6,595 nucleotides of DNA from Escherichia coli (GCF_003334815.1 NZ_QOWO01000068.1); one strand, 5' to 3'. Shown: positions 1 to 6,595, numbered from the stretch's first letter. Translations and numbers: made by a program. Notes: generated by a model not told the origin, from the sequence alone.

Positions 1-43
1 ACTACAGGGCGAAGCAGGCCTGGCAAGGTCAGCTATGCCTTAG
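1..43 (+). CDS. 3' end of a Tn3-family (Tn21-subgroup-like) transposase gene, partial; only the last 13 codons are in the window
   Basis: Frame 2-43 reads LQGEAGLARSAMP then stop TAG at 41-43. The stop lies inside the CTTAG inner end of the 38-bp terminal repeat at 39-76, the arrangement typical of Tn3-family tnpA 3' ends. Too short for independent protein-level confirmation. Confidence 0.35.
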   Translation, partial: LQGEAGLARSAMP

Positions 44-76
44 CGTGCTTTATTTTCCGTTTTCTGAGGTGCCCCC
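39..76. repeat. 38-bp terminal inverted repeat of a Tn21-subgroup (Tn3-family) transposon; inner end CTTAG at left, outer end CCCC at 76
   Basis: Sequence CTTAGCGTGCTTTATTTTCCGTTTTCTGAGGTGCCCCC; reverse complement GGGGGCACCTCAGAAAACGGAAAATAAAGCACGCTAAG has the GGGG...ACGCTAAG layout of Tn21/Tn501/Tn1721-family 38-bp IRs. It matches the IR at 6472-6509 at 28 of 38 positions in the same orientation. Confidence 0.7.
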
Positions 77-224
77 TAATTGAGCATTTCCAGGCGCTTG
101 CGCCTGGTCAACGAAAGAGTCAGCGCCGTAGGCGCTGCCATTTTTGGGGTGAGGCCGTTCGCGGCCGAGGGGCGCAGCCCCTGGGGGGATGGGAGGCCCG
201 CGTTAGCGGGCCGGGAGGGTTCGA

Positions 225-245
225 GAAGGGGGGGCACCCCCCTTC
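225..245. repeat. Perfect hairpin palindrome in the oriV GC-rich region (9-bp stem GAAGGGGGG / CCCCCCTTC, 3-nt loop)
   Basis: Read directly: GAAGGGGGG gca CCCCCCTTC. Confidence 0.6.
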
Positions 246-248
246 GGC

Positions 249-266
249 GTGCGCGGTCACGCGCAC
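249..266. repeat. Second GC-rich hairpin palindrome in oriV (7-bp stem GTGCGCG / CGCGCAC, 4-nt loop)
   Basis: Read directly: GTGCGCG gtca CGCGCAC. Confidence 0.55.
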
Positions 267-279
267 AGGGCGCAGCCCT

Positions 280-340
280 GGTTAAAAACAAGGTTTATAA
301 ATATTGGTTTAAAAGCAGGTTAAAAGACAGGTTAGCGGTG
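280..340. other. oriV AT-rich region (probable DNA unwinding element) with phased GGTT-AAAA repeats
   Basis: Local AT-rich island in an otherwise GC-rich window. GGTT motifs start at 280, 292, 306, 318 and 330 (spacing 12-14 bp), each followed by an A/T run. Confidence 0.7.
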
Positions 341-3275: not shown

Positions 3276-3306
3276 TCGTGGAAACGATAGGCCTATGCCA
3301 TGCGGG

Positions 3307-4191
3307 TCAAGGCGACTTCCGGCAAGCTATACGCGCCCTAGGAGTGCGGTTGGAACGTTGGCCCAGCCAGATACTCCCGATCACGAGCAGGACGCCGATG
3401 ATTTGAAGCGCACTCAGCGTCTGATCCAAGAACAACCATCCTAGCAACACGGCGGTCCCCGGGCTGAGAAAGCCCAGTAAGGAAACAACTGTAGGTTCGA
3501 GTCGCGAGATCCCCCGGAACCAAAGGAAGTAGGTTAAACCCGCTCCGATCAGGCCGAGCCACGCCAGGCCGAGAACATTGGTTCCTGTAGGCATCGGGAT
3601 TGGCGGATCAAACACTAAAGCTACTGGAACGAGCAGAAGTCCTCCGGCCGCCAGTTGCCAGGCGGTAAAGGTGAGCAGAGGCACGGGAGGTTGCCACTTG
3701 CGGGTCAGCACGGTTCCGAACGCCATGGAAACCGCCCCCGCCAGGCCCGCTGCGACGCCGACAGGATCTAGCGCTGCGTTTGGTGTCAACACCAACAGCG
3801 CCACGCCCGCAGTTCCGCAAATAGCCCCCAGGACCGCCATCAATCGTATCGGGCTACCTAGCAGAGCGGCAGAGATGAACACGACCATCAGCGGCTGCAC
3901 AGCGCCTACCGTCGCCGCGACCCCGCCCGGCAGGCGGTAGACCGAAATAAACAACAAGCTCCAGAATAGCGAAATATTAAGTGCGCCGAGGATGAAGATG
4001 CGCATCCACCAGATTCCCGTTGGAATCTGTCGGACGATCATCACGAGCAATAAACCCGCCGGCAACGCCCGCAGCATCGCGACCGTCATCGGTGAGAAGT
4101 TCGGCAGGTATTGGGTGGTGACAATGTAGGTGCTGCCCCAAATGGCAGGTGCTATCGCTGTGAACAATAAATCGGGCGTGCGTAATGACAT
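3307..4191 (-). CDS. pecM: EamA/DMT-family (drug/metabolite transporter) membrane protein, PecM-like (294 aa)
   Basis: Highly hydrophobic 294-aa protein with about 10 predicted membrane-spanning segments, consistent with the two-EamA-domain architecture. Convergent with tetA (31-bp gap), the known position of pecM in Tn1721-type tet(A) modules. GGAGG lies 12 nt upstream of the ATG at 4191-4189. Confidence 0.85.
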   Translation of the reverse strand: MSLRTPDLLFTAIAPAIWGSTYIVTTQYLPNFSPMTVAMLRALPAGLLLVMIVRQIPTGIWWMRIFILGALNISLFWSLLFISVYRLPGGVAATVGAVQPLMVVFISAALLGSPIRLMAVLGAICGTAGVALLVLTPNAALDPVGVAAGLAGAVSMAFGTVLTRKWQPPVPLLTFTAWQLAAGGLLLVPVALVFDPPIPMPTGTNVLGLAWLGLIGAGLTYFLWFRGISRLEPTVVSLLGFLSPGTAVLLGWLFLDQTLSALQIIGVLLVIGSIWLGQRSNRTPRARIACRKSP

Positions 4192-4328
4192 GCGATTACA
4201 AGACCTCCGCTACGGCGATGGGTTTTTGAGAGTTGCAGGCGCCGCGATGACCGCACCCTGACTTGGACTGGCCCTGCCTCGCACCAATCCACCTGCGGCT
4301 ATGGCCGCGATCATGCGAGGCCCGAAAA

Positions 4329-4736
4329 TTACACGACCTGTACACGTCCGCCGAACCCGGAACGCAACAGAGCTTCGTGGGCATCCCGATCCGGGTCGTA
4401 GCAGCAGTCCTGGACCAAACGCACGTCGTAGTCCGCATCACTAGCCCAGGCGACGCTTGAAAGAACAACGCCGGTGGTGCTTATCCCGGCCATGACAAGC
4501 GTGCTTACGCCGCGCGTCCGAAGGTCGGCGTCGAGCGCCGTGCCATAAAAGACGCTGGCTCGCGGACATGCATAGAAAAGGTCGCCCCGTTCGATCGCAA
4601 GCCCTTCGACGGGCAGACCGGTGCGAAATCGTCCGCTCGGGAGATACGGTGAGATTTGGCGATTCGTCGCCGGCGGCGCATGTTCATACTCTTCGCCGAG
4701 CGAAAAGTTGGGGAACAGCACGGGCCGGCCGCGCAA
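4329..4736 (-). pseudogene. Isochorismatase-family (cysteine-hydrolase superfamily) gene remnant, 5'-truncated; encodes only the C-terminal ~135 aa
   Basis: Translation contains FYGTALDADLRTRGVSTLVMAGISTTGVVLSSVAWASDADYDVRLVQDCCYDPDRDAHEALL, matching the conserved C-terminal core of isochorismatase-like hydrolases. The N-terminal third of such a protein is absent and the 5' end overlaps the tnpA' fragment. The Met at 4736 is probably fortuitous. Confidence 0.5.
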
Positions 4737-6476
4737 GGCGTGCTGGCAGCCGTGCAGACCCTGCGTGAGATGAACGCCGACAACCTGCGCAAGGTGCCGG
4801 CCGATGCACCCACGGCCTTCATCAAGCCGCGCTGGAAGCCGCTGGTGATCACCCCGGAAGGCCTCGACCGGAAATTCTACGAAATCTGCGCCCTGTCCGA
4901 GCTGAAGAACGCCCTGCGCTCCGGCGACATCTGGGTCAAGGGCTCGCGGCAGTTCCGCGACTTCGACGACTACCTGCTGCCGGCCGAGAAGTTCGCCGCA
5001 CTCAAGCGCGAGCAGGCCCTGCCCCTGGCGATCAACCCGAACAGCGACCAGTACCTGGAAGAGCGTTTGCAGCTGCTGGACGAGCAGTTGGCCACCGTCA
5101 CCCGCCTGGCCAAGGACAACGAGCTGCCCGATGCCATCCTCACCGAGTCAGGGCTGAAAATCACCCCGCTGGATGCGGCGGTGCCGGATCGGGCGCAGGC
5201 GCTGATCGACCAAACCAGCCAGTTACTGCCGCGCATCAAGATCACCGAACTGCTGATGGACGTGGACGACTGGACGGGCTTCAGCCGCCACTTCACCCAC
5301 TTGAAGGACGGGGCCGAGGCCAAAGACAGGACGTTGCTGCTGTCCGCAATCCTCGGTGATGCGATCAACCTCGGGCTGACCAAGATGGCCGAGTCGAGCC
5401 CCGGCCTGACCTACGCCAAGCTGTCCTGGCTGCAAGCCTGGCACATCCGCGACGAAACCTATTCGGCGGCCTTGGCCGAGCTGGTCAACCACCAGTATCG
5501 CCACGCCTTTGCCGCCCACTGGGGCGACGGCACGACCTCATCCTCCGATGGCCAGCGCTTCCGCGCGGGTGGCCGGGGCGAGAGCACCGGGCACGTCAAC
5601 CCGAAGTACGGTAGCGAGCCGGGACGGCTGTTCTATACCCATATCTCCGACCAGTACGCGCCGTTCAGCACCCGCGTGGTGAATGTCGGCGTCCGCGATT
5701 CCACCTATGTGCTCGACGGCCTGCTGTACCACGAGTCCGACCTGCGGATCGAGGAGCACTACACCGACACGGCCGGCTTCACCGATCACGTCTTTGCCCT
5801 GATGCACCTGCTAGGCTTCCGCTTCGCGCCGCGCATCCGCGACCTCGGCGAAACCAAGCTGTACGTGCCGCAGGGCGTGCAAGCCTACCCGACGTTGCGC
5901 CCGCTGATCGGCGGCACCCTGAACATCAAGCACGTGCGTGCCCACTGGGACGACATCCTGCGCCTGGCCAGCTCGATCAAGCAGGGCACCGTCACCGCCT
6001 CGCTGATGCTGCGCAAGCTCGGCAGCTACCCGCGCCAGAACGGACTGGCCGTGGCCCTGCGCGAGCTGGGCCGGATCGAGCGCACGCTGTTCATCCTGGA
6101 CTGGCTGCAAAGTGTTGAACTGCGCCGCCGCGTGCATGCCGGCCTGAACAAAGGTGAGGCGCGCAACTCGCTGGCCAGGGCGGTGTTCTTCAACCGCCTT
6201 GGGGAAATCAGGGATCGGAGCTTCGAGCAGCAGCGCTACCGGGCCAGCGGCCTCAACCTGGTGACGGCGGCTATCGTGCTGTGGAACACGGTGTACCTGG
6301 AACGCGCCACCCAGGGGTTGGTCGAGGCCGGCAAGCCGGTGGACGGCGAGCTGCTGCAATTCCTGTCGCCGCTGGGCTGGGAGCACATCAACCTAACCGG
6401 CGATTACGTCTGGCGGCAGAGCCGCAGACTGGAAGACGGGAAGTTTCGGCCCTTACGGATGCCCGGAAAACCTTAG
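4656..6476 (+). CDS. tnpA: Tn3-family (Tn1721/Tn21-subgroup) transposase, 5'-truncated (tnpA'); C-terminal ~600 aa including the catalytic region
   Basis: 606-aa ORF with Tn3-family TnpA C-terminal motifs (...[33 protein letters not shown]...[41 protein letters not shown]...WNTVY...). Its stop TAG at 6474-6476 is embedded in the 38-bp terminal IR. Full-length family members are about 990 aa, so the N-terminal DNA-binding portion is missing. The true 5' homology boundary lies somewhere near 4656-4750. Confidence 0.85.
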
Positions 6477-6509
6477 CGTACGATTTTTTCCGAATTCTGC
6501 GGGCTCCCC
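6472..6509. repeat. 38-bp terminal inverted repeat of the Tn1721-type element (outer end at 6509), containing an EcoRI site
   Basis: CTTAGCGTACGATTTTTTCCGAATTCTGCGGGCTCCCC; reverse complement GGGGAGCCCGCAGAATTCGGAAAAAATCGTACGCTAAG. It overlaps the tnpA' stop codon, and GAATTC inside the IR is a recognised Tn1721 hallmark. Confidence 0.85.
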
Positions 6510-6595
6510 GAGTGGGTCGATGATTCCCCAACCCGAAGTGATATCGAAAAAAGGGACAAGGAAATCACAGCGTACAAAAACACGCTCAGCGCGCA

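Follow-up and report, generated by a model that had tools for sequence, protein, structure and literature searches.

What does a complete IncP-1α replication origin next to a Tn1721-type tetracycline resistance module reveal about the plasmid that carries it? The question was posed by a 6,595-nucleotide stretch of Escherichia coli DNA (hereafter, the window), for which an earlier note, made from the sequence alone, had judged a natural IncP-α plasmid and an RK2-derived broad-host-range cloning vector to be equally possible sources. Comparison with the databases gave a different answer. Over its full length (1–6595), the window is 100% identical to E. coli and Salmonella plasmids of the IncI complex (IncK2/Z, Z/I1), including NZ_AP017613.1, NC_022992.1 (pO111-CRL115) and about 16 more. 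Identity that includes both flanks was restricted to this group, while parts of the stretch had 100% matches in thousands of records. Independent long-read assemblies from several countries agree with each other, which makes it unlikely that the full-length matches are assembly chimeras. The window almost certainly represents the right part of a complex resistance locus that has been published from the IncI-complex plasmids of these bacteria; no observation contradicts this identification, and the source appears to be pO111-CRL115 itself or a plasmid nearly identical to it, for instance pMRY16-002_3 or pSTM37-118. Exactly the same arrangement, consisting of a Tn21 mer end, an IncP-1α oriV and a ΔTn1721, was described on pO111-CRL115 (Venturini et al. 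2013, PLoS One 8:e78862), where the insertion site is the colIb operon, and was described again in Salmonella Typhimurium (Wyrsch 2019). pO111-CRL115 (NC_022992.1/KC340959) matches the whole window, both flanks included, at 100%; it has the same parts in the same order at the same site in the colIb region, and no difference was detectable.

All elements named in the earlier note were recovered, at or close to the positions it gave. From left to right, the window contains the Tn21 mer end, 944 bp of IncP-1α oriV DNA, the tet component of Tn1721 and plasmid backbone, with module boundaries placed by the alignments at 76/77, 1020–1022, 4076/4077, 4721 and 6509/6510. The left end (1–43, plus strand) is the 3' end of merR from a Tn21-family mercury resistance transposon; the merR annotation in NZ_AP017613.1 ends at locus position 12043, equal to window position 43, and the Salmonella plasmid pN55391 agrees. 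The gene reads into a 38-bp terminal inverted repeat (39–76) that overlaps the merR stop codon. The outer end of this repeat is position 76, which puts the body of the transposon to the left, where the annotation of NZ_AP017613.1, an IncK2/Z plasmid, places a mer operon, with a colicin gene to the right of the locus. By themselves, positions 1–76/80 are matched by about 5000 plasmid records, as ends of mer transposons. The earlier note had listed 38-bp inverted repeats among the classical elements, and two are indeed present (39–76 and 6472–6509), but they are only 74% identical and stand in direct orientation. The possibility that the left repeat belongs to Tn1721 was considered and rejected: preceded by the 3' end of merR, it is the IRmer of Tn21, and was named IRmer21 in the published locus (Venturini et al. 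2013).

The oriV region is complete (77–1020, minus strand) and 100% identical to RP4 12052–12995 (CP152305.1) and to pBS228. Nine exact copies of the iteron core, TGACANNTGAGGGGC, are present, all on the minus strand and arranged 5 + 3 + 1, where 200 shuffles gave a chance expectation of 0, bearing out the RK2-type iterons of the earlier note. The five-iteron cluster (394–499, with exact cores at 394, 417, 439, 462 and 485) is that of the minimal origin and consists of 17-bp TrfA-binding iterons; the three-iteron cluster occupies 622–692 (cores at 622, 657 and 678), and a lone outlying iteron, again an exact match, is found at 954–968. Sequence composition delineates a G+C-rich tract at about 150–280 and an A+T-rich tract at about 283–345, and two DnaA-box-like sites with one mismatch each are found at 514 and 526. 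The layout and orientation of the iterons, these accessory elements and the identity to the reference origin all agree with the IncP-1α oriV. In pO111-CRL115, the oriV was described as having one IHF site, three DnaA sites and nine iterons (Venturini et al. 2013).

Downstream of oriV, the tetracycline determinant is of class A, as the earlier note had supposed, with both proteins passing curated NCBIfam cut-offs. The repressor gene tetR(A) (1320–1970, minus strand; NF010319, 305.1 bits, cut-off 265) is annotated as such in all matching records and is followed by a terminator-like hairpin (1213–1235, minus strand) with a stem of nine pairs, seven of them G-C, and then a T run. The divergently oriented tet(A) (2076–3275, plus strand; NF012193, 892.6 bits, cut-off 840) encodes a tetracycline efflux transporter of the MFS family. 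The region between the two genes (1973–2029) combines an inverted repeat with promoter-like sites on both strands (hexamers within 1973–2025), and includes two palindromic tet operators (1980–1994 and 2012–2026), pattern matches of which none was expected by chance, that overlap the promoters. The allele is of the Tn1721 type, one residue apart from the canonical Tn1721 copy and differing from the RP4/pBS228 protein by R5I, M55V, V75I and A84T. In class A tet determinants, TetR(A) sits on the operators until tetracycline dislodges it, whereupon Tet(A) exports the drug. By analogy with these established systems, the working part of the window would be a tetracycline switch of this kind, with the repressor bound at both operators of the divergent promoter region until the drug is present. 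The plasmid pO111-CRL115 has been reported to confer tetracycline resistance (Venturini et al. 2013).

The tet genes are part of the complete tet component of Tn1721, which comprises all that follows IRRI up to the outer end of IRRII (1022–6509) and differs by 1 mismatch in 5489 bases (99.98% identity) from the canonical copy in pCFS3313-1, whose match spans 1021/1022–6509. All of its members are present: tetR, tetA, the pecM-like gene, ΔtnpA and IRRII. The PecM-like transporter of the earlier note proved to be a full-length EamA/DMT gene (3307–4191, minus strand), assigned from its annotation and from a match to TIGR00950 at 2e-55 that lies under the cut-off of the profile. Next to it is an N-terminally truncated gene for an isochorismatase-family cysteine hydrolase (4329–4721, minus strand; WP_001351729.1), which retains only the C-terminal part of its profiles (e.g., 105–171 of 188); this gene had not been listed in the earlier note. 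Near the left end, an 80-codon open reading frame (1046–1288, plus strand; WP_000844627.1) is annotated as "transposase" or "relaxase" depending on the record, had no match in NCBIfam or Pfam, and is probably a gene relic. The truncated Tn3-family transposase gene was also recovered: ΔtnpA (4721–6476, plus strand) is the 3' part of the Tn1721 (TnAs1-family) gene, corresponding to codons 404–988 of 988 and to positions 384–954 of the 954 in profile NF033527, and agrees at 99.94% with the 3' end of the full-length gene in pCFS3313-1. Because the N-terminal part is missing, it is inactive. The component ends in the 38-bp right-end repeat IRRII (6472–6509), which has the same sequence as IRRI in the canonical copy. 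Every match outside the IncI group stops at 6509, while about 18 records continue into 6510–6595, which, from the annotation, is IncI-complex host plasmid backbone adjoining the colicin Ia/Ib gene.

In the canonical 11.1-kb Tn1721, a member of the Tn21/Tn501 subgroup of the Tn3 family, IRRII is the same, as is the rest of 1022–6509 but for the single mismatch, and a complete tnpR, a complete tnpA and the 38-bp IRRI directly abut the position equal to 1022. In the window, IncP-1α oriV DNA occupies the position of IRRI, and no part of the transposition module (IRL, res, tnpR, full-length tnpA or IRRI) is present, making the element a ΔTn1721 and not an autonomous transposon. With half a transposase gene, a single Tn1721 repeat and no resolvase, the module is unable to transpose alone and spreads within larger structures. 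Another host is the 317-kb IncFIB megaplasmid pN55391 of Salmonella Infantis, which matches 1–6509 at 100%, including the mer end, oriV and ΔTn1721, but differs to the right of IRRII, where the conjugal-transfer gene traA takes the place of the colicin region, and has its Tn21 part interrupted by IS26.

How much of the window is shared with IncP-1α plasmids themselves? The earlier note had proposed, as the confirming result, near-identity over 77–6509 in a comparison with RK2/RP4, Tn1721 and common RK2-derived vectors. The RP4 sequence (12052–16051) is in fact co-linear with 77–4076 only, with 7 mismatches and no gaps in 4000 bases (99.8%), and 77–2088, from oriV through tetR, is 100% identical to both RP4 and pBS228; all seven mismatches to these plasmids fall within tetA, between 2089 and 2351. 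The co-linearity breaks off at 4076/4077, within the EamA/PecM-like gene, such that the DNA for its N-terminal ≈38 codons is missing in RP4, and from there RP4 and pBS228 run on towards trfA. The tet region of RP4 has trfA and ssb 0.5 kb beyond it and klcA on its opposite side, none of which is present in the window, and RP4 carries an additional, inverted iteron left of the 76/77 breakpoint. A source in a natural IncP-1α plasmid (RK2/RP4/RP1) or an RK2-derived vector with a broad host range (pRK290, pLAFR or pRK404 type) would explain the long co-linear segment, yet neither RP4 nor pBS228 has the Tn21 IRmer, the DNA for the N terminus of the pecM-like product, the hydrolase remnant, ΔtnpA or IRRII (RP4 has nothing of 4077–6509), the tetA allele is that of Tn1721 and not that of RP4, and the Tn21 mer and IncI flanks are both exact matches to IncI-complex plasmids. 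We consider such a provenance next to impossible, and for the records examined it is refuted. The types of the host plasmids were IncK2/Z or IncFIB, never IncP.

The oriV would have travelled as part of IncP-1α-type DNA, including a Tn1721-type tet region, that became captured beside a Tn21-family transposon. As to the order of assembly, the sequences examined leave two routes by which this could have happened: homologous recombination, or descent from an IncP-1α plasmid with a full-length tet component. We give about an even chance to recombination between an IncP-1α plasmid and a Tn1721 copy, with a crossover in the shared tet DNA within 1022–2088 that brought the IncP oriV together with the Tn1721 right end and a tetA allele of the Tn1721 type. 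To the left of 2089, the shared tet DNA of the window is identical to RP4 and Tn1721 alike; between 2089 and 2351, it carries the Tn1721 allele at all seven of the sites that distinguish RP4; and to the right of 4076 it follows Tn1721 only. Homologous recombination was also proposed by Venturini et al. (2013), because no 5-bp target duplications flank the locus. However, in an IncC Klebsiella plasmid, IncP-1α DNA extends 303 bp further left (RP4 11749–12051) and is contiguous with 77–3276 at 100%, including the Tn1721-type tetA allele. Here, oriV is linked to this allele independently of the Tn21 junction, and the linkage could be ancestral rather than the product of late recombination.

The same plasmid, as a second independent context for the oriV/allele linkage, favors descent, a credible route to which we assign somewhat less than an even chance. 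An older IncP-1α plasmid would have carried oriV and the full tet component through IRRII, RP4 would later have deleted 4077–6509, and Tn1721 would have arisen when a Tn1722-type element landed at 1020/1022. RP4 is uninterrupted across 1020–1022, where IRRI abuts in Tn1721, as befits a pre-insertion target. On the other hand, the 12 records holding RP4 11640–12060 (of which RP4 and pBS228 were inspected in detail) yielded no trfA-bearing IncP-1α plasmid with the full arrangement, and the seven clustered tetA differences need a separate explanation.

No trfA is present in the window (1–6595), where oriV would not form a functional replicon with a cognate gene of its own; in RP4, trfA is 0.5 kb past the 4076 breakpoint, in DNA that is missing here. 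The RK2 oriV is not known to fire without TrfA. In the published description of pO111-CRL115, trfA is likewise absent from the plasmid (Venturini et al. 2013). For these two reasons, the orphan oriV is most likely an inert passenger. TrfA could come in trans from a co-resident IncP-1α plasmid. When cloned, the RK2 oriV replicates if TrfA is provided in trans, and its iterons confer incompatibility; both raise the idea that the orphan is useful and is kept by selection rather than by hitch-hiking. It might serve narrow-host-range IncI, IncFIB or IncC plasmids as a conditional second origin when a TrfA-producing IncP-1α plasmid is co-resident, act against IncP-1α plasmids as an iteron-based incompatibility or exclusion determinant that titrates TrfA, or offer a hotspot for insertions, an advantage that was the subject of speculation by Venturini et al. 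(2013). The nine-iteron origin is complete and 100% conserved across many plasmids of several replicon types. Such identity is, however, that of recently spread DNA and is uninformative on selection. Most Tn1721-type tet modules lack oriV and have their left boundaries at 1021, 1057 or 1105, and deletions exist, including a 160-bp loss in pO26-CRL125 (Venturini et al. 2013) and partial copies in two of the matches. We therefore regard retention for usefulness, by any of these means, as very improbable, and favor the inert passenger.

Every part of the window is classical, and a search of Rfam with the window gave no matches. Since the exact mosaic had already been published in 2013 and 2019, the discovery value is small, and the view of the earlier note that no undescribed system is present holds. 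The use of the locus is in tracing: the junctions at 76/77 (IRmer|oriV) and 6509/6510 (IRRII|backbone) are precise lineage signatures, by which a single line of DNA for resistance to mercury and tetracycline can be followed, in isolates from livestock and humans, across IncI-complex plasmids, IncFIB megaplasmids and further backbones. An oriV match in a sequence screen need not mean an IncP plasmid or contamination with a laboratory vector. The IRmer|oriV junction was found in 294 of 72,556 plasmid records, and the non-IncP resistance plasmids with this oriV, 294 in number, include the S. Infantis megaplasmid lineage. Among 5,426 complete E. coli genomes, about 166 carry the oriV-bearing left end (most of 1–1400).

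The window consists of the mer end of Tn21 (1–76), an IncP-1α oriV (77–1020) that is repeat-rich, non-coding and outside Tn1721, the entire tet component of Tn1721 (1022–6509, of which 1022–4076 is common to RP4 too), and IncI-complex backbone (6510–6595). TetR(A) (1320–1970, minus strand; 305.1 bits against a cut-off of 265) and Tet(A) (2076–3275, plus strand; 892.6 bits against a cut-off of 840) form a divergent pair, with a terminator-like hairpin at 1213–1235, 3′ of tetR. Further right lie an EamA/DMT (PecM-like) transporter, a membrane protein (3307–4191, minus strand) that matched TIGR00950 at 2e-55, under the cut-off of that model, and a short ORF for an isochorismatase-family hydrolase (4329–4721, minus strand), for which the profiles were matched in the C-terminal part only. 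A long plus-strand ORF ending at 6476 encodes a Tn3-family transposase, with a match limited to profile positions 384–954 of 954. The start of the 606-codon ORF at 4656–6476 was rejected as the true gene start, as tnpA homology begins only at 4721 and the initial ≈21 codons of the ORF run antisense to the hydrolase fragment. Two 38-bp repeats are found at 39–76 and 6472–6509. An Rfam search of the window returned no families at the gathering score.

An 80-codon ORF on the plus strand (WP_000844627.1; 1046–1288) lies within the Tn1721 tet component, just beyond the IRRI site. It is labelled “transposase” in RefSeq and “relaxase” in GenBank, including in RP4, and it matched no family in NCBIfam or Pfam. 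The ORF is probably a gene relic, perhaps what is left of a mobilisation (relaxase) gene.

All elements listed in the earlier note were confirmed (the iterons, TetR(A)/Tet(A) and their operators, the PecM-like transporter, the partial transposase and the 38-bp repeats), and the six substantial features follow the order it had given. Its prediction of near-identity to RK2 across 77–6509 failed, however: in RP4 (CP152305.1, a laboratory stock) and the IncP-1α plasmid pBS228, the match was confined to 77–4076, with seven mismatches in 4000 bases and no gaps. To the left of position 77, RP4 continues with more oriV–klcA intergenic DNA containing an inverted iteron, while to the right of 4076 it diverges, with trfA less than 0.5 kb away. 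For the records examined, this rules out both a natural IncP-α plasmid and an RK2-derived vector as the origin of the window, whose two edges are the Tn21 mer end and the IncI-complex backbone. The overall interpretation in that note thus stands for the classical identities of the modules and for the verdict that nothing new is present, and falls for the provenance, the extent of RK2 identity and the transposon to which the left inverted repeat was given; this repeat (39–76) overlaps the merR stop codon and is the IRmer of Tn21.

The arrangement in the window is already known, the mosaic having appeared in Venturini 2013 (PLoS One 8:e78862), which placed the locus in the colIb operon, and in Wyrsch et al. 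2019 (PMC6780720), which found this structure again in Z/I1 plasmids of Salmonella Typhimurium. A megablast search of 72,556 plasmid records matched at least 5000, at least 4878 of them at ≥99% identity. Among the matches listed, about 18 records, all but one from E. coli, cover all 6595 bases at ≈100%. They include pO111-CRL115 (NC_022992.1; 115,452 bp), MN334220, which is one of the plasmids of Wyrsch et al., and the conjugative IncK2/Z plasmid NZ_AP017613.1. In NZ_AP017613.1, the left edge of the window is the 3′ end of merR, with the complete merTPCADE of a Tn21-type transposon farther left, and a colicin Ia/Ib gene adjoins the right edge. The plasmid pB10 (NC_004840) has also been reported in papers to carry an identical ΔTn1721, the incomplete Tn1721 of the window.

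The oriV contains nine exact copies of the iteron TGACANNTGAGGGGC, all on the minus strand, arranged as a group of five (394–499), a group of three (622–692) and a single outlying copy (954–968); no copies were found in 200 dinucleotide-preserving shuffles. The five-iteron cluster is adjoined by DnaA-box-like sites at 514 and 526, an A+T-rich run (≈283–345) and a G+C-rich tract (≈150–280). The origin is structurally complete, but requires TrfA, and trfA is absent from the window. The host plasmids examined were typed as IncK2/Z or IncFIB, not IncP. Venturini 2013 (PLoS One 8:e78862) described an oriV region identical to that of pBS228, in which one IHF site and three DnaA sites accompany the nine iterons, and considered the origin “not expected to be functional” because the plasmid carried no trfA. 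Given the need for TrfA, the lack of trfA in both the window and the published plasmid, and the host types, the oriV is most likely a passenger, and we infer that it is inactive. That the widely disseminated orphan oriV has been selected for an effect exerted when an IncP-1α plasmid is co-resident seems very improbable, because variants that lack the oriV or have deletions in it are frequent. In pO26-CRL125, a sister plasmid, 160 bp of oriV is gone (Venturini 2013, PLoS One 8:e78862).

The junction between IRmer and oriV (≥80% of 1–160) was present in 294 plasmid records, and the oriV-bearing left end (≥80% of 1–1400) in 166 of 5,426 complete E. coli genomes. The IncFIB megaplasmid pN55391 (317 kb), from Salmonella Infantis, matches 1–6509 at 100%, with other DNA to the right of IRRII (6472–6509) and a Tn21 part cut by IS26. 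Most E. coli tet(A) modules have no oriV, and their left boundary falls at 1021 (the Tn1721 IRRI), 1057 or 1105. One class begins at 846, beside a Tn5393/strB end, and retains the outlying iteron. In some E. coli plasmids (e.g., NZ_CP075478.1, locus positions 2440–2520), the tet segment of the sul2-strA-strB-tetR-tetA-floR cluster begins at window position 846, straight after a Tn5393-type IR. With its tet segment starting there, this widespread cluster has 175 bp of IncP-1α oriV (846–1020), including the iteron at 954–968.

In class A tetracycline determinants, TetR(A) shuts off both divergent promoters through two operators until tetracycline lifts the block, and Tet(A) exports the drug. Two palindromic tet operators lie between tetR and tetA (1980–1994 and 2012–2026), where they overlap promoter-like hexamers on both strands. 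TetR(A) bound at these operators would repress the tetR and tetA promoters, and derepression by tetracycline would lead to efflux through Tet(A). Judged by its sequence requirements, all of which are intact, the working function of the module would be tetracycline-inducible efflux.

The oriV–tetR stretch (77–2088) does not differ from RP4 and pBS228. All seven differences are concentrated in a 263-bp 5′ stretch of tetA (2089–2351), with 2 kb of identical sequence on either side, and account for R5I, M55V, V75I and A84T in TetA; the pattern suggests either a patch introduced by recombination or an allele particular to one lineage. The canonical Tn1721 copy in pCFS3313-1 is the same as the window from 1021/1022 to 6509 bar one mismatch, and differs in having complete tnpR, tnpA and IRRI, the last directly adjoining position 1022. 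Homologous recombination between an IncP-1α tet region and a Tn1721 copy, with a crossover anywhere in 1022–2088, would account for the RP4-identical oriV–tetR together with the Tn1721-allele tetA and the Tn1721 right end, and we give it an even chance. Alternatively, the window could descend from an older IncP-1α arrangement, RP4 having lost 4077–6509 and a Tn1722-type insertion at 1020/1022 having made Tn1721. RP4 is indeed unbroken where IRRI sits in Tn1721, like a pre-insertion target, and such descent is quite conceivable, if short of an even chance. In the IncC Klebsiella pneumoniae plasmid NZ_CP024192.1 (locus positions 8001–11503), which nine more Klebsiella/Serratia records resemble, the IncP-1α DNA reaches 303 bp farther left (RP4 11749–12051) and is contiguous with window 77–3276 at 100%, including the Tn1721-type tetA allele; the match stops just past tetA. 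As the oriV and this allele are linked there behind a longer IncP-1α left flank, their linkage predates the Tn21 junction. The Klebsiella plasmid appears to be an independent sampling of the same oriV–tet ancestor, before insertion of Tn21 at 76/77, and does not decide between recombination and descent.

The repeats at 39–76 and 6472–6509 are only 74% identical and have the same orientation, and therefore do not bracket a transposon; 77–6509 was ruled out as an element between two IRs, as these are in direct orientation and come from different elements. The tnpA remnant corresponds to codons 404–988 of the 988-codon tnpA in pCFS3313-1. As the module lacks a resolvase and retains just half of the transposase gene and a single Tn1721 IR, it is immobile by itself. 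A related yet distinct Tn501/Tn1721-type element is present in pBS228, where another Tn3-family transposase gene (locus positions 21667–23455) is 92.6% identical to ΔtnpA of the window (4725–6513).

The larger Tn21–oriV–ΔTn1721 unit has as its ends inverted IRs from two related transposons, and the ends of Tn501/Tn1721-type elements are reportedly substrates for Tn21 transposase. Transposition of this unit as a whole would be expected to create 5-bp direct repeats beyond IRtnp and IRRII. The Tn21 tnp end (IRtnp) was removed by IS26 in both pN55391 and NZ_AP017613.1. The five bases outside IRmer (77–81, TAATT) differ from those outside IRRII (6510–6514, GAGTG), consistent with the published lack of 5-bp target repeats flanking the pO111-CRL115 locus (Venturini 2013, PLoS One 8:e78862). 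In an IncP-1α plasmid that had received the original Tn21 insertion, a second copy of TAATT should lie just beyond IRtnp; no such plasmid was found among the records examined. In several Enterobacter, Klebsiella and E. coli plasmids (e.g., NZ_CP049291.1 and NZ_OQ821087.1), a 1.3-kb insertion of IS4321/IS5075 (IS110 family) breaks the match to 1–6509 into two parts. The 38-bp IRs of transposons in the Tn21 family are the targets of these insertion sequences.
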